DNA of 64,000 nucleotides from the NCBI GenBank assembly GCA_000092065.1, contig CP000600.1; one strand, 5' to 3'. The position numbers and the translations under genes were made by a program. The DNA is from Ostreococcus lucimarinus. Its lineage: Eukaryota. The notes beneath the pieces are model-generated. The model searched no databases and was not told the origin of the DNA. It saw nothing but the letters and a program-made list of their open reading frames with translations. Below are positions 1-8,776 of this stretch, piece by piece; within the stretch, counting starts at the first letter, position 1; every line of letters starts with the position of its first letter.

Positions 1-84
1 AAGAAGGCGGCCAAGTCGCCGACCGCGGCCAAGGAGGCGCTCGCGAAGTGGTACGGTGCGTATCTTTTAAAGGCGATCGGATAG
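1..84 (+). CDS. Possible 3'-terminal coding fragment of an upstream gene. Frame 1 reads ...KKAAKSPTAAKEALAKWYGAYLLKAIG and then a stop.
   Basis: Open frame from the window edge to TAG near 82-84. There is no homology I can name and no start codon, because the gene begins upstream of the window. Confidence 0.12.
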   Translation, partial: KKAAKSPTAAKEALAKWYGAYLLKAIG

Positions 85-323
85 GATCGTTCGACGCGCG
101 CGACGACGCGCGGACGCGCACAGGACGCGCGCGCGCGATGGGAATCGATCGTTAAGTGCGCGTTCGCGCGAACGGGGCGACGCGGGACGCGCGCGCGGGA
201 GGACGCGTGGCGGAAATCGGAAGATATGGTTGCGATCGCGCGCGCGGGACGGAGGCGGGACGCGGGACGGACGCGCGCGAGGGACGATAGAGCGGGCGCG
301 AGGGACGCGCGGCACGCGGGGGG

Positions 324-1152
324 GTGAGAAGGGCGAAGGAAACGCGCGCGATGGGGAGACTGACGATGCGCGACGACGCGTTCGACGCAGGTCCGGACCG
401 TAAGTTGTACTTGCCGGGCGGCCTCTTGACCAAGGCGGATTTGCCGAGCTACCTCGACGGTACGCTCGCGGGTGATTACGGCTTCGACCCGCTCGGCCTC
501 GGCGCCGACGGTGCGATCAAGCAATACCGCGTCGCGGAAGTCATCCACGCTCGATGGGCGATGCTCGCGATCCCGGGTGTCGTCATCCCGGAGGCGCTCG
601 GCTTGCCGGGCGGCGTCTGGACGGAAACCGGCAAGGTGTTCCTCGACGGCGAAACCGGCCGTCCGTTCTTCCTCGAGAACCCGATCGTGTTCGCGGCCGT
701 CCAAGTTGCGCTCATGGCTGGTGTCGAGCAATTCCGCTCGAGCGGTGAAGGTCCGGCCGGTTTCGTGCCGTTCAAGGGCAAGTTCGACGAGTCGGCGTTC
801 AAGGGCCTCGACCCGATCAACCCGGGTGGCCCGCTCGACTTCTTCAACGTCGCCTCCAACCCGCAAGACTTGGCCCTCTTGAAGGTCAAGGAAATCAAGA
901 ACGGTCGCTTGGCGATGATCGCCATGTTGGGCGTCTTCGTGCAAGGTCTTACCACCGGTGAAGGTCCGGCTGCCAACTGGGGCAAGCACGTCGCCGATCC
1001 GTTCGGTACGTAACGCGCGCGCGCGCCTCGCCCATCGACGACCGCGTTCGCGTGTTTTCCACGAGCACTCACTGACCCCGCTATCTCTCGTCTCCCACGC
1101 AGGTTACAACTTCGTCACCCTTCAAGCCGTCGACCGCACGCCGGTTCTTTAA
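324..1152 (+). CDS. LHC: Light-harvesting chlorophyll a/b-binding protein (LHC superfamily, Lhcb-like). The main exon is 324 (first ATG at 351) to about 1005. A probable 97-nt intron spans about 1006-1102, followed by a 3' exon 1103-1152.
   Basis: The translation contains GPDRKLYLPGG...PSYLDGTLAGDYGFDPLGLG, the helix-1 motif YRVAEVIHARWAMLA and the helix-3 motif KNGRLAMIAMLG. These are the classic Chl a/b LHC signatures (ELEVIHSRWAML type) rather than the FCP type. The stop after ...ADPFGT sits inside a GGTACGT donor. A CACGCAG acceptor at about 1096-1102 lets the reading frame continue as YNFVTLQAVDRTPVL*, which gives a C-terminal tail of normal length after the ADP motif. No transit peptide is encoded in this ORF, so a missing 5' exon is possible. 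Confidence 0.85.
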
Positions 1153-1392: not shown

Positions 1393-2592
1393 ATGGCATC
1401 CATCGCCATCGCCCGCGCGTCGACGTCGTCCCGCGCCCGCGCGACGACGATCCGATCGAAGTCGCCTTCATCGACGCCTCCGCCGTCGCCGGCGCGTCGA
1501 ACGCGCGCGCGCGCGTCGATCGTCGACGACGCGCGCGCGGTCGCGTCCATCGGCAGCGCGACGCCGAAACGCCGTCGTCGCGCGCCGACGCGCGGCGACG
1601 TCGCGGCGGCGCATCGCGCGACGGCGGCAGAAGCGTCCGCGGCGACGCCGAGCTCGAACGAGACGTCGGCGACGTCGAGCATCGTCACGCTGCTCGTCGC
1701 GGGCGTGGCGAGCGTCGGTTGCATCGCGGCGACGCACGCGGCGCGAGGTCCGCACGCGCGCGCGATCGGATCGATGGCGCTGGGGTTGTTGCTCGCGCTC
1801 GTGGGGTACAAGAAAAAGTCGCTCGACGAAAGCGGGGCGCTCGCGGCGATCGGGGTGGGGTTCGGGAGTATTTACGCGGATGTTCGATTCGGCGCCGCGC
1901 TCGCGGCGTTCTTCTTCGCGTCGAGCGCGGTGACGCGCGTGCGGTCGGACGTGAAGAAGCGGGTGGATGAACACTTTAAAGTCGGTGGTGGGCGCGATTG
2001 GGTGCAAGTGTTCGCGAATGGGTTCGTGCCGACGGTCATCGCGCTCGCGTTCGCGTCGGGCGGTTTCGGCGCCGAGGCGACGAGCGCTTTGGCGAGCGCG
2101 TACCTCGGATATTACGCGTGCTGCGGCGGCGATACGTTTGCGAGTGAGCTCGGGGTTTTGTCAAAATCCAAGCCCAGGTTGATCATCGACTGGCGGCGCG
2201 AGGTCGCCGCGGGAACGAACGGCGGCGTCACCGCGTTGGGCTGGGTCGCGAGCGCGAGCGGCGGCGCCGTCGTCGGCGCGGCGTTCCATCTAGGTCAATC
2301 AGCCCTTCGCGCGGTCGCGACCGACGGCGGCGCGCTCGTCGCGCCCTCTAACGCCGCGTCAGTGATCGCATTCGGTGCCGTCGCCGGCGTCTTCGGCTCG
2401 CTCGTGGACAGCGTTCTCGGCGCCACGATTCAATACTCGGGCTTTTGCGAAGAGCGTCAAAAAGTCGTCAGCAAACCCGGGCCCACGGTGACCCGCATCA
2501 GTGGTTCAGAATTCCTCAGCAATAGCGCGGTGAATTTGGTGTCCGGCGTGATAACCGCCGTCGTCGCCGCGTGGCTGTCGCCTTTGTTGTAA
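1393..2592 (+). CDS. DUF92 family integral membrane protein (TMEM19 / plant VTE6 phytyl-phosphate kinase family), with an S/R/A-rich N-terminal organelle-targeting region.
   Basis: ATG at 1393. The translation has multiple TM helices and the conserved GGDTFASELG motif (YYACCGGDTFASELGVLSKSKPRLI) typical of DUF92/COG1836. The N-terminus is rich in R, S, A and T, as expected for a targeting peptide. Confidence 0.7.
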   Translation: MASIAIARASTSSRARATTIRSKSPSSTPPPSPARRTRARASIVDDARAVASIGSATPKRRRRAPTRGDVAAAHRATAAEASAATPSSNETSATSSIVTLLVAGVASVGCIAATHAARGPHARAIGSMALGLLLALVGYKKKSLDESGALAAIGVGFGSIYADVRFGAALAAFFFASSAVTRVRSDVKKRVDEHFKVGGGRDWVQVFANGFVPTVIALAFASGGFGAEATSALASAYLGYYACCGGDTFASELGVLSKSKPRLIIDWRREVAAGTNGGVTALGWVASASGGAVVGAAFHLGQSALRAVATDGGALVAPSNAASVIAFGAVAGVFGSLVDSVLGATIQYSGFCEERQKVVSKPGPTVTRISGSEFLSNSAVNLVSGVITAVVAAWLSPLL

Positions 2593-2654
2593 CGCATCGC
2601 GCCGCGGCGCCGTCGCGCGCGTCTTCCCGTCGCCTCACCTCGCGCCTCTCCCCG

Positions 2655-3041
2655 ATGTTCCCTCCCCGCGCCGGTCAGTGCGCGTGCGTCATCGACGGCG
2701 CGCACACCGAGTTCTTGATCACCGAGTACGCCGACCGCGTCCTCGTCGTCGCGACGCAGATCGGTAAACTCGGCACGGTGTTTCATCTCTCTCGCAGTCA
2801 ATCGGTCGAGCTCAGCGATCCCTCCTACGAGGACGACGGCGAGACGATGGACGACGCGACGGCGAGCATGGACACCGTCATCGCGCGCACGGTGATCGGC
2901 AGGCGCGACGACGACGCGCTGCGGGCGTGCGCGAGAAGGATAGCGGACGTGCTGTTCACCGAAGGTTTGGAAAAGTGCGTCGAGCGACGCCGCGACGAGA
3001 CGACGCGCGAACGCGACGACGACGCGCGAACGCCAGACTGA
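2655..3041 (+). CDS. PSMG3: Proteasome assembly chaperone 3 (PSMG3/PAC3)-like small protein.
   Basis: From the internal ATG at 2655 (the upstream part of the ORF overlaps the previous gene), the sequence AHTEFLITEYADRVLVVATQIGKLGTVFHLSRSQS aligns with human PSMG3 (QVVCTAFSSHILVVVTQFGKMGTLVSLEPSS). The length is about 128 aa, as for PSMG3. Confidence 0.55.
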   Translation: MFPPRAGQCACVIDGAHTEFLITEYADRVLVVATQIGKLGTVFHLSRSQSVELSDPSYEDDGETMDDATASMDTVIARTVIGRRDDDALRACARRIADVLFTEGLEKCVERRRDETTRERDDDARTPD

Positions 3042-3261: not shown

Positions 3262-4341
3262 TTAGAGCTCGTCTTTGGTGGTGGGATCGAACGCGCACGA
3301 GCCGTCGCCGGCGTCGGAGGCGCACGCCTCTTTCGCTCGCGCCTCCGCCTCCGCCTTCAGCTTTGCCTGTGCGATCTTCTCTTCGAGATTGCGATAATCT
3401 TTCGTCTCATCGTGCGTCATTGTAGCGTTCGTGCCGTTGACGTTGACCACGACGTCGCCGCTTTGCGAGTTTTTGACGTTCAAGTCGTCCACCGTCGTAT
3501 TCAGCAATTTGTCGATATCTACGTCGATGCCTTGCGCCTCGACGTGTTCCTTGAATCGCTCCGCACCCTCCTTTTGCAGCCGGCGCTTCTTCTCCGCCCC
3601 GGTTTCCAATTCATCCGCGCCGGCATTCCTTAGTATCTCGGCGATCTCGCGTTCGCCCATCAGCATGGCGAGCTTTTGCGCCGATAGCCCCAAGTCCATC
3701 ATCGGTGTCTTTTGCACGTAATTGACCACAGCTCCGGCCTCGACCAAGATCCGTACGCACTCCGCGCACTTGGATAACACCGAACGCATGAGCACGGTGT
3801 ACCCGATCGCGTCAATCTCGTTTACGTTGGCGCCGTAATCGATCAACAAATCCATCGCTCGCGCGTTTCCTAAGAACGCCGCCTTCATGATCGGCACGTA
3901 ATGCCGCGTCTCTCCCAACTTTTGACACTTCTCTCTCAAATTCGGCTTCCATCTCAACAAATCTTCGAGCTCCTCCATATCGTCGTCATCGATCGCCTCG
4001 TGTATCGAACCGATCGCGCTCTCGCCTTCGCCGAGCTCGGGATCGTACGGCTTAAATTCCTCCTCCTCGACCGGCTTCTTCGCCGCCTTCTTCACCGACT
4101 TCTTCCGTCGCTTCTTTTCCTTGATCACCGATTCGACCGATTCCACGTCCACGGGCACCTCCTCCCTCTTCGCGTCCGCGACGACGTTCGCCGTCGCCGT
4201 CTCGCCGTCCGCCGCCGTCGCCGCGTCGCTCTCCCCGTTCCACCCGAAATTCGCCTCGCACGCGCGCGCGCGCACCGCGACGACGATCGCGCACGCGCAC
4301 GCCAGGACGATTTTCGCGCCGCGTCCGCGCGCGCGTCGTCG

Positions 4342-4373
<32 letters not shown>

Positions 4374-4395
4374 TCGATGATTCCGCGAGCACCAT
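3262..4395 (-). CDS. Ankyrin-repeat protein with an N-terminal hydrophobic signal/anchor and a C-terminal KDEL ER-retention motif.
   Basis: Start at the ATG at 4395 (MVLAESSTTTTTTTTATT...IVLACACAIVVAV, a hydrophobic segment). Ankyrin repeats appear in the segments PIMKAAFLGNARAMDLLIDYGANVNEIDAIGYTVLMRSV and CAECVRILVEAGAVVNYV. The protein ends ...DPTTKDEL*. The upstream R-rich part of the 642-aa ORF is a GC-bias artefact. Confidence 0.6.
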
Positions 4396-4542
4396 CTCGC
4401 GCGCGTCCGGCCGCGCGCGCGTCCCGCGTCCCGCGTCCGTCCCGCGCCGCGCGCCGCGTCCCGCGCGTCCGTCCTCGCGGCTCGCGTCGCGCGCGCGCGT
4501 CGCGCGCGGTCGTGTGTCGTCGCCACTCGTCGACGCGACGCG

Positions 4543-6207
4543 ATGGCGACGCGCGCCGCGCTGTCGACGCGGCCGGCGCCGGCGCGCGCGCGCGCGCGTC
4601 CCGCGCGGCGCGCGACGATCGCGCGCGCGCGCGACGCGGACGTCGTCGTCGTCGGCGCCGGTCTCGGCGGCCTGAGCGCGGCGGCGCTGCTCGCGTCGCG
4701 GGGACTGCGCGTGACCGTGCTCGAGGCGCACGTCGTCGCGGGCGGCGCCGCGCACGCGTGGACGCGCGGTGGATACACGTTCGAATCCGGACCGTCGCTG
4801 TACTCGGGGCTGGAGGCGCGACCGACGACGAACCCGATGGGACAGGTGCTGCACGCGATCGACGAACGCGTGGCGTGCGCGCGGTACAACACGTGGACGT
4901 GTCACCTGCCGGAGGGAACGTTCGTGACGGAGGTCGGGAACGATCAGTTCTTGGAGGTGCTGCGAGAGTACGTGGATGAGGAGGCGTGCGAGGAGTGGAC
5001 GCGGTTGAAGGCGCTGATGGAACCGCTGGCGACGGCGAGCGCGTCGCTGCCGCCGGCGGCGGTGCGAAGCGACGTCGGAGGGGCGTTCACGCTGGCGCGA
5101 TTCGTGCCGGGATTGGTGCGATCGGCGCCGTACATCGGGAAGATTATGGCGCCGTATAGCAAGTTTATGGCGGAGAACGACATCAAGCACCCGTTCATTC
5201 GTAATTACATGGAGATGCTCTGTTTTTTGCTCAGCGGGGCGCCCGCGAGCGGAACGATGGCGGCGGAGATCGGATACATGTTTGACGATTGGTACAAGCC
5301 AAACTCGATGCTCGAGTTTCCGATGGGCGGGAGCGGAGCGATCGTGGACGCGCTCGTGCGAGGGCTGAAGAAGTTTGGCGGCGAGCTAGAGCTCGGGACA
5401 CACGTCGAGGAAATCATCGTCGAAGGCGAAGGCAAGGAGAAGCGCGCGACGGGCGTGCGGACGAGAGACGGAAAGGTTTACAAGGCTAACAAGGCTGTGA
5501 TATCGAACGCAACGCTCTGGGACACGGTACCGATGCTACCACCGGATGCGATGCCTCGAGAGTGGATAGAAGAAGCGACATCGACGGCGATGTGCGAGTC
5601 GTTCATGCACTTGCATCTCGGCATCGACGCCGCCGGCCTTCCCGATGACTTAGAGATTCATCACATTTACGTCGAAGATTGGGATCGCGGCGTCACGGCG
5701 GAGCAAAACATGGTGCTCGTGAGCATTCCTTCCGTACTCGACCCCTCGATGGCGCCCGAGGGCAAGCACGTGATTCACGCGTACACGCCCGGAAACGAGC
5801 CCCTCGATATTTGGGACGGGCTCGACCGTAACTCGGACGAGTACAAAAAGTTGAAGGAGGAACGCTCGCAAGTGCTTTGGAAAGCTGTAGAAAAGATCAT
5901 CCCAGACGTGCGCAAACGCTGCGAAATCACGATGGTCGGCACGCCCGTGACGCAAAAGAGATTCTTGCGAAGGGCGAAGGGCACGTACGGGGGCACGGGT
6001 TGGATATCCGAGGATCAAGACAGCATTCCGATCACGAGCGCGTCGACGCCGCTTCCAGGCCTGCTTGTCGTCGGCGACTCTAACTTTCCCGGCCCTGGCG
6101 TCCCGGCCGTAGCCGCGGGCGGTTGGAGCGCGGCGAATGAATTGATTTCGCCGCTTCAAACCGCCGCTTTGCTCGACAAAGTGTGTCCTCCGGGGACGTC
6201 AAAGTGA
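4543..6207 (+). CDS. CRTISO-like: FAD-dependent carotenoid isomerase-like oxidoreductase (CRTISO / phytoene-desaturase superfamily), plastid-targeted.
   Basis: An R/A-rich N-terminal presequence is followed by the dinucleotide-binding motif DVVVVGAGLGGLSAAALLASRGLRVTVLEAHVVAGGAAH. The C-terminal GTYGGTGW...LLVVGDSNFPGPGVPAVAAGGWSAANEL matches the CRTISO terminus (GTYGP...[21 protein letters not shown]). Confidence 0.72.
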   Translation: MATRAALSTRPAPARARARPARRATIARARDADVVVVGAGLGGLSAAALLASRGLRVTVLEAHVVAGGAAHAWTRGGYTFESGPSLYSGLEARPTTNPMGQVLHAIDERVACARYNTWTCHLPEGTFVTEVGNDQFLEVLREYVDEEACEEWTRLKALMEPLATASASLPPAAVRSDVGGAFTLARFVPGLVRSAPYIGKIMAPYSKFMAENDIKHPFIRNYMEMLCFLLSGAPASGTMAAEIGYMFDDWYKPNSMLEFPMGGSGAIVDALVRGLKKFGGELELGTHVEEIIVEGEGKEKRATGVRTRDGKVYKANKAVISNATLWDTVPMLPPDAMPREWIEEATSTAMCESFMHLHLGIDAAGLPDDLEIHHIYVEDWDRGVTAEQNMVLVSIPSVLDPSMAPEGKHVIHAYTPGNEPLDIWDGLDRNSDEYKKLKEERSQVLWKAVEKIIPDVRKRCEITMVGTPVTQKRFLRRAKGTYGGTGWISEDQDSIPITSASTPLPGLLVVGDSNFPGPGVPAVAAGGWSAANELISPLQTAALLDKVCPPGTSK

Positions 6208-6354: not shown

Positions 6355-6900
6355 TCAAGCCGCCGGAGGCACGTCGTCTCCGTCGTCGTCGTCAGCCATG
6401 AACGCATCCTTCGCCGACGCCTCGTGCGAGGCATGTCTCGATCCCTTTCCAGAGTGTTTTTCCTTGTGCTTTCGGATCGCTCTCGTCACGATATCCGCGC
6501 ACGAATCAATCGTCGCGTACAAGTTCTCTCCCGTCCCGTCGGCGTGCAGCGTCGTCCCTCGCGTCATCAAAACCGTCACCTCCGTCTTGTGTTCGTGCCC
6601 GCCTCGAGAATCCTCCCCGCCGCGCGCGCTGCATCGCACGTCCACCTCACGAATTTCCCTCGGATCCACGTGCGAGCACGCCTTCCCGATCTTCGCGCGG
6701 CAGTACTCGTCGATCGCCGGCGTGATCTCCAAATGCAGCCCTTGGACGAGCATCTTCACGTCCGATCCCGCGTTCGCCGCGCGCACGCGCACCGCGCCGC
6801 GCGCGCCCCCCCCCCGCGCGGAGCATTTTCGCGCGCGCGTCCACCGCGCGTCGCGCACCGCGCTCGCGCCGCACGACGTCCTCGGCACCGCGTTCGACAT
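6355..6900 (-). CDS. HPF/PSRP1: Ribosome hibernation promoting factor / plastid-specific ribosomal protein 1 (HPF/RaiA/S30EA family) with a transit peptide.
   Basis: ATG at 6900 on the minus strand. After an R-rich presequence of about 45 aa, the sequence MLVQGLHLEITPAIDEYCRAKIGKA...TEVTVLMTRGTTLHADGTGENLYATIDSCADIVTRAIRKHKEKH matches bacterial HPF (ITPALRDYVEKKL...MYAAIDLLIDKLERQLKKHKEK). The gene lies antisense within the N-terminal extension of the HisRS-frame ORF. Confidence 0.75.
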   Translation of the reverse strand: MSNAVPRTSCGASAVRDARWTRARKCSARGGGARGAVRVRAANAGSDVKMLVQGLHLEITPAIDEYCRAKIGKACSHVDPREIREVDVRCSARGGEDSRGGHEHKTEVTVLMTRGTTLHADGTGENLYATIDSCADIVTRAIRKHKEKHSGKGSRHASHEASAKDAFMADDDDGDDVPPAA

Positions 6901-6925
6901 CCTCGGTCGTTACGCGTCGTTCGCG
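6901..6925. promoter_or_regulatory. 25-bp spacer between the divergent start codons of the HPF gene (minus) and the HisRS gene (plus). A bidirectional promoter or overlapping 5' ends are implied.
   Basis: The ATG of HPF is at 6900 on the minus strand and the ATG of HisRS is at 6926 on the plus strand. Confidence 0.4.
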
Positions 6926-8776
6926 ATGTTTTCAAGATTACTTTCGCGCCCCTCTCGCGTCTCTTCCGGCGCGCGTCTCGCGCGCGCGACGCTCGACGCG
7001 GTGCGACGAGAATTCGTCCTCGCGTTCGCGCGCGCGTCGAGTCGATCGCGCGTTCGACGGCGCGGCGTTCGCGTCGTAATGTGCGATCGATCCGTCGATC
7101 GCGATCCACGTCAGATTTTCAGCGCGCGCGATCGCTCGCTCGATCGATCGATCGCGCGATCGGCGATCGAACCTCGCGAAGAGGTTTCGCGGCGTCGGTC
7201 GATCGACGATGCGAGTTTCGAGGCGCGCGCGCGCGATCGATCGAGCGGCACTGCGCGACGCGCGCGCGCGTCGTCGACGATGCGCGCGCGACTCGTCGCG
7301 TCGAGCGCGCGGTTGTGCGCGCGACGCGCGGTGAGGGCGCGACGGGAGTGCGCGCGGGCGTGCGCGACGACGCCGGGGGCGAGAGTCGCGCCGCGACGGG
7401 CGTGGGGGACGCGAACGCGCGCGACGTCGTCGCGAGGGGGCGACGGCGGACGGACGACGACGACGGTGGATCCGACGCGCGCGAGCGAGCGCGGGGCGAA
7501 GCGGGCGACGATCGATCTGCAGCCGCCGAAGGGGACGCGAGATTTCCCGCCGGAGGAGATGCGACAGCGGTCGTGGCTGTTTGGACACTTTCGAGAGTGC
7601 GCGAAGGTTTTCGGGTTCGACGAGTTCGACGCGCCGGTGCTGGAGAGCGAGGAACTGTTCACGAGGAAGGCTGGGGAAGAGATCACGACGCAGTTGTATA
7701 ACTTTTCGGATAAGGGCGATCGCAGGGTGGCGCTGAGGCCGGAGTTGACGCCGTCGTTCGCGCGGTTGATTTTGCAGCAAGGCAAGTCGTTGGCGTTGCC
7801 GGCGAAGTGGTTCGCGATCGGGCAGTGCTGGAGATACGAGCGCATGACGCGAGGAAGACGTCGGGAGCATTATCAGTGGAATATGGACATCGTCGGCGTG
7901 AGCGGGGTGGAGGCGGAGGCGGAGTTGTTGGCGGCCATTACGACGTTTTTCAAGAGGGTGGGGGTGACGAGCGCCGACGTAGGCATCAAGGTGAGCTCGC
8001 GAAAGCTGTTGCAGGAGGTGTTGACGCGGTTCGGGATCGACAGCGAATCTTTCGCGCCCGTGTGTGTGGTGGTGGATAAGATTGAAAAGCTCCCGCGCGA
8101 AAAGATTGAGGAAGAGCTCAGAGAGCTCGGCGTGAGCGACGAGGCGGTGGAGGGCATCTTGGCGGCGACGTCGATGCGCACGGTAGAAGAGCTCGAGGCC
8201 CTCATCGGCCCGGACGCGGAGGCGGTGAAGGACTTAAAGAAGCTTTTTGAGTACGCCGATGCGTACGGCTACCGAGATTGGCTCGTGTTCGACGCGTGCG
8301 TCGTTCGCGGTTTGGCGTACTACACGGGCATCGTCTTCGAAGGTTTCGATCGCGCGGGCGAACTTCGCGCCATCTGCGGTGGCGGGCGATACGACATGCT
8401 TCTTGGGGCGTTAGGCGGCGAGAATCAACCCATGGTCGGGTTCGGGTTCGGCGACGCCGTCATCGTGGAGCTGCTCAAGGATAAGGGTTTGATGCCCGAC
8501 TTTTCCAAGGGCGACGTCCAAGACTTGGTGTTCCCGCTCGGCGAGTCGCTGCGCCCGGCGGCGATGCGCGTCGCCGCCCAGCTTCGCGACGCCGGTCGCA
8601 CCGTTGATCTCATCCTCGAAGACAAGAAAGCGAAATGGGCGTTCAAGCAAGCCGAACGCGTCGGCGCCCAACGCGTCATTTTGCTCGGCGAAAAGGAATG
8701 GGAAGCGGGGAACGTTCGCGTCAAAGACTTAGCCAGCCGCGAAGAGGTCGACGTCAAATTGGAAGATCTCAAATAA
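6926..8776 (+). CDS. HARS: Histidyl-tRNA synthetase (class II aaRS) with a mitochondrial/plastid-type presequence.
   Basis: The first ATG after the HPF gene (MFSRLLSRPSRVSS..., an amphipathic presequence). The body contains LQPPKGTRDFPPEEM, FDAPVLE, LRPELTPSFARL and ALPAKWFAIGQCWRYERMTRGRRREHYQWNMDIVG (motif 2), the GGGRYD HisRS motif, and a C-terminal anticodon-binding domain (AQRVILLGEKEWEAGNVRVKDL). Confidence 0.88.
   Translation: MFSRLLSRPSRVSSGARLARATLDAVRREFVLAFARASSRSRVRRRGVRVVMCDRSVDRDPRQIFSARDRSLDRSIARSAIEPREEVSRRRSIDDASFEARARDRSSGTARRARASSTMRARLVASSARLCARRAVRARRECARACATTPGARVAPRRAWGTRTRATSSRGGDGGRTTTTVDPTRASERGAKRATIDLQPPKGTRDFPPEEMRQRSWLFGHFRECAKVFGFDEFDAPVLESEELFTRKAGEEITTQLYNFSDKGDRRVALRPELTPSFARLILQQGKSLALPAKWFAIGQCWRYERMTRGRRREHYQWNMDIVGVSGVEAEAELLAAITTFFKRVGVTSADVGIKVSSRKLLQEVLTRFGIDSESFAPVCVVVDKIEKLPREKIEEELRELGVSDEAVEGILAATSMRTVEELEALIGPDAEAVKDLKKLFEYADAYGYRDWLVFDACVVRGLAYYTGIVFEGFDRAGELRAICGGGRYDMLLGALGGENQPMVGFGFGDAVIVELLKDKGLMPDFSKGDVQDLVFPLGESLRPAAMRVAAQLRDAGRTVDLILEDKKAKWAFKQAERVGAQRVILLGEKEWEAGNVRVKDLASREEVDVKLEDLK

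Follow-up and report, generated by a model that had tools for sequence, protein, structure and literature searches.

The product of the single-exon gene analysed here most probably (at a probability of about 0.7) resides in the lumen of the ER; it is built on an ankyrin-repeat scaffold and would be retrieved through a C-terminal KDEL. A first-pass annotation of the same DNA had proposed an ER-lumenal ankyrin-repeat protein, and this placement is supported in silico by a conserved N-terminal signal segment, a KDEL-type tail, an N-x-T sequon and a pair of cysteines.

Results

Gene model and organisation of the protein

The ORF is located on the minus strand of the window (the whole stretch of 64,000 nucleotides of Ostreococcus lucimarinus contig CP000600.1 that was analysed) and runs from an ATG at 4395-4393 to a TAA at 3264-3262. 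Its translation of 377 amino acids matches without any difference XP_001422681.1 (A4SAX7), which is listed for O. lucimarinus CCE9901 as a "predicted protein" and is uncharacterised. The N-terminus reads MVLAESS-T8-ATT-RRRARGRGAK-IVLACACAIVVAV-RARA-CEA and is followed, beyond the hydrophobic core and an A-x-A motif, by a disordered spacer, four ankyrin repeats, a helix-hairpin-helix region and a disordered tail, the protein ending in DPTTKDEL. As had been claimed, the KDEL lies directly before the stop codon. The coordinates of these features are collected in Table 1.

The ATG at 4395 is the first one in frame, and the next in-frame ATG, at 3978 (residue 140), is located within an invariant block. 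Residues 96-139, upstream of this second ATG, are also invariant, so translation must begin at 4395. A transcript start downstream of the hydrophobic segment, which the first-pass annotation had listed among the findings that would count against its reading, thus appears untenable.

Table 1. Features of the ankyrin-repeat gene and its product, with their positions in the window.
Feature	Position	Strand	Basis or remark
Complete CDS (377 codons + TAA), ankyrin-repeat protein	3262..4395	-	Identical to annotated single-exon model
Start codon and n-region, residues 1-28, with basic cluster RRRARGRGAK	4312..4395	-	First in-frame ATG
Poly-Thr tract, (ACG)8, residues 8-15, in n-region	4351..4374	-	Length-polymorphic microsatellite
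Hydrophobic core (h-region) IVLACACAIVVAV, residues 29-41, 13 aa	4273..4311	-	Mean Kyte-Doolittle 3.2
c-region RARA, residues 42-45	4261..4272	-	(-3,-1) rule
Spacer, residues 46-124, presumably disordered	4024..4260	-	Low-confidence AF2 region
Basic cluster KEKKRRKKSVKKAAKK in spacer, residues 92-107	4075-4122	-	R96, K98, K99 invariant
Ankyrin-repeat domain, four repeats, residues ~125-258	3622..4023	-	Pfam, AF2, Foldseek, phmmer
Invariant loop WKPNLREKCQKLGETR, residues 149-164, with sole invariant cysteine C157	3904-3951	-	Orthologue alignment
C-terminal helix / beta-hairpin / helix region, residues 266-359, family-specific	3319..3600	-	Profile search, AF2
N-glycosylation sequon N323-A-T325, in hairpin	3421..3429	-	Invariant in alignment
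Acidic tail, with Cys pair C358, C367; residues 361-377 at pLDDT < 50	3265..3324	-	AF2, alignment
C-terminal KDEL, residues 374-377	3265-3276	-	Translation

The N-terminal segment

The hydrophobic stretch reported after the poly-Thr tract was indeed found in the ORF. Its 13 uncharged residues are bounded by K28 and R42, with a net charge of +6 in the 15 residues that precede them and of 0 in the C flank, and the AF2 model shows residues 24-47 as one long helix spanning the core. The number of threonines varied from 7 to 11 among environmental variants, and the tract was absent from the orthologues. A signal-like segment was kept in all of the approximately 15 orthologous lineages; when orthologues were searched for loss of the hydrophobic N-terminus, which would have spoken against ER targeting, every full-length one was found to have an equivalent segment. 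In all of these full-length sequences, the n-region carries a charge of +3 to +10, the uncharged core has 11-19 residues and sites conforming to the (-3,-1) rule are located 2-10 residues past it, the C-flank charge ranging from -2 to +1. Some of the orthologues have h-regions of 17-19 residues that might serve as uncleaved anchors.

The rule-based features expected of a cleavable signal peptide (a basic n-region, an h-region between 7 and 15 residues long, and small amino acids at positions -3 and -1) are present in the window protein and in orthologues. By the (-3,-1) rule only, signal peptidase could cut after A43, A45 or A48, and the Bathycoccus-like sequences show a textbook A-x-A↓WSFF site, with A-x-A↓W conserved in the group. 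The first-pass annotation had described the segment as a signal anchor; as the h-region of the window protein has just 13 residues, with an A-x-A site behind it, a cleaved signal peptide seems the likelier of the two. A match to Pfam DUF6550 along residues 28-126 (25.6 bits versus a cut-off of 27) was discarded as compositional, as these residues combine a hydrophobic segment with a charged stretch of low complexity behind it.

Spacer, ankyrin domain and C-terminal region

The presence of ankyrin repeats was borne out by Pfam Ank_2 (PF12796; residues 132-225, E = 3.6e-17, 63.1 bits versus a cut-off of 27.3) and Ank (PF00023; E = 2.2e-7, 31.2 bits versus 21.1), and by the AF2 model, in which four helix-pair repeats are stacked along residues 127-257 with pLDDT values of 82-92 in the best blocks. 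Foldseek and phmmer searches against the PDB recruited DARPins and ankyrin-1/2 as the best matches to residues ~127-261, at 1.6e-31 to 1e-11 in phmmer and, in Foldseek, at TM-scores of 0.65-0.80 relative to the target, the top Foldseek matches being DARPins with an rmsd of ~3 Å over ~140 columns. The domain is a near-consensus ankyrin stack. DARPins and ankyrin-1/2 match this domain only and contain nothing that corresponds to the N-terminal signal, to the spacer, to the C-terminal region or to the KDEL. The repeat domain is by far the best conserved part of the protein. The conserved basic clusters RRKKS and EKKRRL look like the nuclear localisation or basophilic-kinase motifs of cytosolic and nuclear proteins.

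The C-terminal region reached a pLDDT of 55 when it was modelled alone by AF2, a value too low to support a fold search, and the model of the whole protein recruited generic DARPin matches only. A profile of this region alone matched only fragments of the same family. The residues G321, N323 and T325 were invariant in 16 sequences, and this sequon was the only one common to all lineages. The invariant G and N-x-T could also be structural, as part of a hairpin turn, instead of a glycan site. The tail that follows is otherwise unalignable, and contains a cysteine pair (C-x8-13-C) kept outside the Bathycoccus-like lineages.

Conservation of the KDEL-type terminus

The tail being modelled as disordered, the KDEL is predicted to be accessible. 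The check on its conservation proposed in the first-pass annotation came out largely in favour of the ER reading: KDEL, RDEL or KEEL closes the protein in 12 of 15 lineage representatives, and one subclade ends in QEP. A [KR][DE]EL terminus was found in 115 of the 128 family sequences retrieved. The O. tauri orthologue XP_003082931.2 has an RDEL tail. All three variants fit the PROSITE pattern PS00014 ER_TARGET, [KRHQSA]-[DENQ]-E-L, and KEEL is found on an ER-localised human protein. Of the stop-to-stop segments in the six frames of the window that reach 100 amino acids, 292 in total, a single one, corresponding to this ORF, ends in an ER_TARGET motif. Identity between lineages amounts to 86% for the last four residues compared with 13% for the preceding 12, and no ER_TARGET terminus was present in any of 142 unrelated ankyrin proteins. 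These values, together with the 12 lineages, argue that the motif is under selection and not fortuitous.

One Ostreococcus-like subclade (P0004, P0008, P0011) ends in PTQEP at a real stop codon and in a syntenic locus. It has lost the KDEL secondarily, and thus ER retrieval would be dispensable in this subclade.

Distribution of the family

The orthologous lineages, of 47-72% identity, come from O. tauri, O. mediterraneus and marine metagenomes, among them a low-GC group with KEEL tails that we infer to be Bathycoccus-like. A search with the full-length profile against 1.84 billion representatives gave, among the best 150 matches, full-length matches only to the family's own clusters, the remaining ones being giant multi-ankyrin proteins aligned through the repeats alone. 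As orthologues of at least ~35% identity should score within these best 150, the family looks restricted to the picoprasinophyte clade. In addition, no relative was detected in the viral contigs searched, which gave no sign of exchange with prasinoviruses.

Two kinds of apparent exceptions were set aside. Sequence P0003, a TPR-ankyrin "fusion" without a signal peptide, could have been taken as an orthologue lacking the N-terminus; as its identity to the window ends exactly at the low-complexity run GACGCGGCGACGGCGGCGG (window position 4228), its contig has a coverage of 3.9x and the upstream genes are non-syntenic, it seems to be an assembly chimera. Likewise, the long N-terminal extensions of P0002, P0006, P0007 and P0199 are not real, the ORF-callers having run upstream through stop-free GC-rich DNA.

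Discussion

Proposed pathway

In the pathway that we propose, the basic n-region, the 13-residue h-region and the A-x-A c-region would act as a co-translational ER signal peptide, with cleavage most likely around A45. The mature protein, from the spacer with its basic cluster through the ankyrin repeats and the helix-hairpin-helix region to the Cys-bridged acidic tail and the KDEL, would then be wholly lumenal, where N-glycosylation at N323 and a C358-C367 disulfide are probable. ERD2 would recognise the exposed KDEL of molecules that escape to the cis-Golgi, and bring them back or keep them from moving on. With respect to the receptor, the ERD2 orthologue of O. lucimarinus was cloned and, with 11 others, assayed in protoplasts on Amy-HDEL/KDEL; only those of T. 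brucei, K. lactis and S. cerevisiae were named weak or inactive (PMC10036638). It is thus reported as functional on K/HDEL cargo, in the sense that the text of that study does not list it as weak or inactive.

Alternative placements

Instead of being cleaved, the N-terminal segment could remain as a type II signal anchor in the ER membrane, with a cytosolic N-terminus and with the ankyrin domain and the KDEL in the lumen, an arrangement that we consider unlikely. It would agree with the h-regions of 17-19 residues in P0013, P0015, P0017 and P0025, with the long helix of the AF2 model and with the strongly basic N flank, which fixes an N-in orientation, and H/KDEL signals are present on some type II membrane proteins too. 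However, the 13-residue core between K28 and R42 is too short for a bilayer, which takes about 18 or more residues (a few orthologues, in a range of 11-19, are borderline), small-residue (-3,-1) sites lie just past the core in every orthologue, including the A-x-A↓W of the Bathycoccus-like group, and h-regions of up to about 17 residues are reportedly cleaved as a rule. The first-pass annotation had offered as its own alternative a type II protein facing the cytosol with a fortuitous KDEL, which was mis-stated, as a type II anchor also puts the repeats in the lumen, and the charge bias (+6 versus 0) opposes a cytosolic orientation. For a protein that does face the cytosol, whether because its N-terminus anchors it to the ER or to the outer membrane of an organelle, or because translation begins at a downstream Met, one could invoke the usual location of ankyrin repeats, the resemblance of the basic clusters to nuclear localisation signals and one transcriptome-derived O. 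mediterraneus entry that begins at an internal Met. We regard this as highly improbable: the latter entry is probably a 5' truncation, the internal Met (residue 140) is replaced by L or F in other lineages and sits inside the invariant first repeat, the flanking charges of the orthologues predict an N-in/C-out topology, a fortuitous KDEL would not persist as KDEL, RDEL or KEEL in so many lineages, and nothing would account for the conservation of the sequon and of the Cys pair.

Two further readings keep the protein extracytosolic but outside the ER. It could work beyond the ER, as a secreted or vacuolar protein or in an ER-derived compartment, the KDEL providing a transient or leaky retention as in the plant KDEL-tailed cysteine endopeptidases. 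That a whole subclade functions with QEP instead of KDEL would fit, as would the conserved dibasic cluster RRKK if it were a kexin-type processing site; nevertheless, there is little chance of this being so, given that [KR][DE]EL is kept in all the other lineages down to 47% identity while the neighbouring residues drift, and that no other feature of the sequence suggests a post-ER sorting signal. Finally, the succession of poly-Thr, RRR, hydrophobic core and ARA superficially resembles a bipartite transit peptide to the thylakoid lumen, in which a twin-arginine signal comes after a stromal part rich in Ser and Thr. The chances of this are practically nil, as the h-region begins at residue 1-8 in P0013 and P0018, too near the N-terminus for a stromal transit peptide to precede it, the twin arginine is not conserved (it is lacking in P0013, P0021 and P0025), the poly-Thr is a variable microsatellite absent from the orthologues, and neither the conserved KDEL nor the N-glycosylation sequon would have a role in the thylakoid. 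Residence in the ER lumen after signal peptide cleavage remains the preferred reading.

Comparison with known systems and possible function

Like the canonical soluble ER residents retrieved by ERD2, such as BiP, PDI and calreticulin (PS00014), A4SAX7 has a putative N-terminal signal and an exposed C-terminal [KR][DE]EL, and a receptor reported as active on K/HDEL cargo is present in the species. In contrast to them, A4SAX7 has the fold of an ankyrin array and not that of a chaperone, oxidoreductase or lectin, and belongs to a family confined to one picoalgal clade, with one subclade devoid of the retrieval signal. Helical-repeat cofactors are known in the ER lumen, including SIL1 (armadillo-like repeats and a KDEL-like tail), p58IPK/ERdj6 (TPR) and SEL1L/Hrd3 (Sel1 repeats). 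As alpha-solenoid scaffolds of a "cytosolic type" that work in the lumen, these are the closest functional parallel to a lumenal adaptor, although the repeat type is different, there is no sequence relationship, and nothing hints at a link with BiP or ERAD.

Signal peptides combined with ankyrin repeats are also found in secreted effectors of eukaryotic pathogens, for example PbPE1 and PbPE17 of Plasmodiophora brassicae, which indicates that ankyrin repeats can traverse a eukaryotic ER. These effectors have no H/KDEL, their site of action after export is the cytoplasm of the host, and their homology to A4SAX7 does not go beyond the generic repeat; the study that described P. brassicae effectors deliberately left out candidates bearing ER-retention signals. 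AnkB of Pseudomonas aeruginosa is a periplasmic ankyrin-like protein reportedly needed for the activity of the catalase KatB (Howell et al. 2000), so that here, too, ankyrin repeats serve to bind a partner in a compartment that is oxidising and lies outside the cytoplasm, the topological equivalent of the ER lumen. It differs in being bacterial and exported through Sec, with no retrieval signal and no specific similarity to A4SAX7. Our literature search found neither a characterisation of A4SAX7 (XP_001422681.1) nor a description, in any eukaryote, of an ankyrin protein that resides in the ER.

Ankyrin repeats are protein-binding modules, overwhelmingly cytosolic or nuclear. As they bind proteins and the repeat domain is the most conserved part of A4SAX7, by analogy with other helical-repeat cofactors bearing a KDEL tail and with ER escorts dedicated to particular clients, the protein may be, with low confidence, a lineage-specific lumenal adaptor or escort for one or a few client proteins. 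A more detailed scenario, which we put forward tentatively, is that this is the first natural family of ankyrin-repeat proteins resident in the ER lumen, arisen in picoprasinophytes of the Ostreococcus/Bathycoccus type, in which the near-invariant repeat face and the WKPNL[RK]E.C..G.T loop with its lone cysteine would capture a secretory client, possibly by a reversible mixed disulfide as in the thiol retention by ERp44; ERD2 would return the complex, and the QEP subclade would have been rewired by loss of the KDEL.

Significance

The presence of ankyrin repeats is taken to mark a protein as cytosolic or nuclear, and it is often used so when reasoning on topology and localisation. The targeting logic proposed here is that of textbooks and implies no new cellular mechanism, the interest lying in the unusual pairing of domain and compartment and in the client that the protein may bind. 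If the ER-lumenal reading is true, this conserved family, in which a signal peptide and a KDEL-type tail go together with a glycosylation site and a likely disulfide, would show that an ankyrin scaffold was recruited to reside in the ER lumen. The clade that lost the KDEL provides a natural comparison for the weight of retrieval in the function of the protein, and this small single-exon candidate, testable in the genetically tractable O. tauri, raises the question of what needs a lineage-specific lumenal adaptor in a minimal eukaryotic cell.

Gene Model and Genomic Context

The ankyrin gene was located on the minus strand, from an ATG at 4395–4393 to a TAA at 3264–3262, as a 377-residue ORF identical over its full length to XP_001422681.1/UniProt A4SAX7 ("predicted protein", Ostreococcus lucimarinus CCE9901). 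The public gene model is a single exon and coincides with the ORF of the first-pass annotation, whose coordinates and description were right, as the hydrophobic N-terminus, the Pfam ankyrin repeats and the KDEL end are all present. The protein starts with MVLAESS, eight Thr and ATT-RRRARGRGAK-IVLACACAIVVAV-RARA-CEANFGW, and ends in ...CAFDPTTKDEL. The gene thus already has a database entry as an uncharacterised predicted protein, and no characterisation of it was found in full-text literature searches.

The first in-frame ATG is that at 4395 and the next lies at 3978 (residue 140); the frame stays open 5' of the former because the DNA there is stop-poor, GC-rich and overlaps a neighbour gene. 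Within residues 96–139, 16 columns are invariant in 16 sequences (R96, K98, K99, G124, E125, G129, H132–D139), so this region is translated and, from the alignment, the start must be at 4395, with the hydrophobic segment included. The Met at residue 140 is not conserved, being L or F in other lineages. A 252 aa transcriptome model from O. mediterraneus (A0A7S0PPY0, P0253) starts at the equivalent Met and so omits both the signal peptide and a stretch of repeat 1; since this start cuts the invariant first repeat, a contig truncated at its 5' end is the most likely explanation.

The full-length identity places the window in O. lucimarinus, and the neighbouring genes fit that origin. The ankyrin and amine-oxidase/FAD genes are divergent, and the 147 bp between them (84% G+C) presumably act as a very compact bidirectional promoter. 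In addition, a plus-strand ORF containing histidyl-tRNA synthetase (HisRS; 6398–8776) overlaps the opposite-strand S30AE-type gene; as the HisRS Pfam match begins only at ORF residue 379, translation of HisRS probably begins well downstream, which would make the overlap an artefact of ORF calling.

Positions of protein segments, motifs and neighbouring genes
Feature	Residues	Window	Strand	Remark
Helix, signal segment	24–47			AF2
Low-confidence spacer with conserved basic cluster KEKKRRKKSVKKAAKK	49–124			AF2
Four ankyrin repeats	127–257			AF2; best blocks pLDDT 82–92
Helix	266–288			AF2
Hairpin with sequon	314–327			AF2
Helix	334–359			AF2
Flexible tail	361–377			AF2
(ACG)8 microsatellite		4351–4374	−	poly-Thr tract
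Basic cluster KEKKRRKKSVKKAAKK		4075–4122	−	R96, K98, K99 invariant
Invariant cysteine	C157	3925–3927	−	
EKKRRL		3577–3594	−	conserved basic cluster
C-x8-13-C-A-[FY]	C358, C367	3295–3324	−	
Divergent spacer		4396–4542		
Chlorophyll a/b-binding protein		324–1013	+	neighbour gene
DUF92 membrane protein		1393–2592	+	neighbour gene
PAC3		within 2571–3041	+	neighbour gene
Amine-oxidase/FAD protein		4543–6207	+	neighbour gene
S30AE-type ribosomal factor		6355–6900	−	neighbour gene
Histidyl-tRNA synthetase		ends 8776	+	neighbour gene

A Restricted Family with a Conserved Repeat Domain

A search of 5.8 billion proteins recovered 26 relatives (47–100% identity), with a sharp fall in score from the family (E = 5.4e-61) to generic ankyrin matches (3.5e-9). 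Named members come from O. lucimarinus, O. tauri (XP_003082931.2, "Ankyrin repeat") and O. mediterraneus, the others being marine metagenome sequences, among which low-GC, Asn/Glu/Lys-rich relatives are probably Bathycoccus-like. At the metagenome locus L001, the order HisRS, S30AE, oxidase, ankyrin gene, PAC3 is that of the window, which confirms orthology there. No relative outside this clade was detected with a full HMMER profile against 1.84 billion representatives or with a second profile built from just the C-terminal region, nor was any found in the viral contigs scanned.

Two kinds of deviating database model were discarded. A signal-less "TPR-ankyrin fusion" of 510 aa (P0003, at 5001–6533 of L002) is probably, and best explained as, an assembly chimera, because its 99.8% identity to the window ends at 4228, exactly where the low-complexity run GACGCGGCGACGGCGGCGG starts, the contig coverage is 3.9x and the genes upstream are not syntenic. 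Long N-terminal extensions in several other models were attributed to ORF-caller run-through in stop-poor DNA.

The repeats matched Pfam Ank_2 (E = 3.6e-17, residues 132–225) and Ank (2.2e-7); AF2, run on the protein with a 16-sequence alignment, gave a mean pLDDT of 62.8. The repeat domain, the best conserved region of the protein, is near-consensus, with DARPins and ankyrin-1/2 as top PDB matches. An invariant loop, WKPNL[RK]E.C..[LI]G.T, joins repeats 1 and 2 and holds the sole invariant cysteine, C157; a C-x-x-C (C210, C213) appears in repeat 3 of some lineages only. The two conserved basic clusters resemble signals for nuclear localisation or sites of dibasic processing. Modelled alone, the C-terminal region reached a pLDDT of 55, too uncertain for searching.

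Conserved Putative Targeting Signals at Both Ends

Although the N-terminal segments cannot be aligned in sequence, every full-length orthologue has a basic n-region (net charge +3 to +10 over the 15 residues preceding the core, except in models whose chosen start leaves this region out), a hydrophobic core of 11–19 uncharged residues and (−3,−1)-rule sites 2–10 residues past it, so that the hydrophobic N-terminus noted at first pass is kept across the family. In the Bathycoccus-like group, REA[STH]A|WSFF is by rule a textbook cleavage site. The poly-Thr tract lies in the n-region, numbers 7, 8, 9 or 11 Thr among environmental O. lucimarinus-like sequences and is absent from orthologues.

At the other end, KDEL, RDEL (O. 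tauri) or KEEL (Bathycoccus-like) is terminal in 12 of the 15 lineage representatives, and in 115 of the 128 family sequences that were fetched; fragments or broken models account for most of the remaining endings. All three match the PROSITE pattern [KRHQSA]-[DENQ]-E-L, and an ER-localised human protein bears KEEL (PMC2140024). Among the 12, pairwise identity is 86% over the last four residues versus 13% over the preceding 12, which also vary in length, a signature of selection acting on the tetrapeptide itself. As a gauge of chance, six-frame translation of the window yields 292 stop-to-stop segments that are 100 aa or longer; only one, the ankyrin ORF, ends in the pattern, and among 142 unrelated ankyrin proteins there is no such case. 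In an older O. tauri model (UPI0000E4C0BD, P0220) the C-terminus differs, being longer and lacking the RDEL with which the current RefSeq model (XP_003082931.2, P0218) ends; localisation predictions based on the older model would have overlooked the signal.

Conservation of the KDEL end broke down in one Ostreococcus-like subclade (P0004, P0008, P0011), which ends in ...CAFDP[TK]QEP (L001 5018–5029). At L001 this ending is followed by a genuine stop codon, with no KDEL encoded 3' of it in any frame. The subclade, L001 included, retains the signal-like N-terminus, as well as the sequon, cysteine pair and synteny, and in a neighbour-joining tree is nested within Ostreococcus-like sequences, beside O. 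tauri, a position that marks the QEP ending as a secondary loss of the putative retrieval signal.

Further features point to the lumen. The only sequon common to all 15 lineages, N-x-T at N323, lies in a modelled beta-hairpin where G321, N323 and T325 are invariant. C358 and C367, within an otherwise unalignable, variable acidic tail, are kept in all lineages outside the Bathycoccus-like group; this is what a disulfide-linked loop should show in an oxidising compartment, whereas in a cytosolic disordered tail it would be odd. The last 17 residues have a modelled pLDDT below 50, so the tail would be flexible and the KDEL exposed. The O. lucimarinus ERD2 orthologue was one of 12 assayed on Amy-HDEL/KDEL in protoplasts, and the only weak or inactive orthologues named in that text are those of T. 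brucei, K. lactis and S. cerevisiae (PMC10036638).

Topology and Possible Role

The signals and their conservation are directly legible in the sequences, and from them we consider the protein to be soluble and ER-lumenal with a probability of about 0.7; lumenal topology as such, including a post-ER variant, is very probable. The signal anchor first proposed would, if uncleaved, make a type II protein, its repeats lumenal there too, but this is rather unlikely, since the core has only 13 residues between K28 and R42 and is followed by A-R-A, which by rule fits a cleaved signal peptide. The first-pass alternative of a cytosol-facing type II protein with a fortuitous KDEL is highly improbable: in orthologues the charge of the flank C-terminal to the core ranges from −2 to +1 (acidic to neutral), so the positive-inside rule predicts a cytosolic N-terminus and everything downstream in the lumen, cleaved or not. 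A thylakoid/Tat protein is scarcely credible.

As a soluble lumenal protein, it would be translocated into the ER, with the signal peptide probably cleaved near A45, N323 glycosylated and the tail cysteines oxidised after entry; ERD2 would then retrieve or retain it via KDEL. The ankyrin face might bind a specific lumenal or secretory client, tentatively suggesting a lineage-specific adaptor or escort. Alpha-solenoid ER cofactors (SIL1, p58IPK, SEL1L) and KDEL-type client escorts are known, and are comparable in logic to such a role.

Full-text literature searches found no description of a eukaryotic ER-lumen-resident ankyrin protein. The nearest precedents come from Plasmodiophora, whose secreted ankyrin effectors bear a signal peptide, lack H/KDEL and exert their action in the cytoplasm of the host, and from Pseudomonas, whose AnkB is reported to be periplasmic (Howell et al. 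2000). The protein shares the textbook targeting logic of soluble ER residents, the unusual part being the cargo. In conclusion, it would involve no new mechanism, and its interest is that of a clear exception, both conserved and testable, to the rule that ankyrin means cytosolic.
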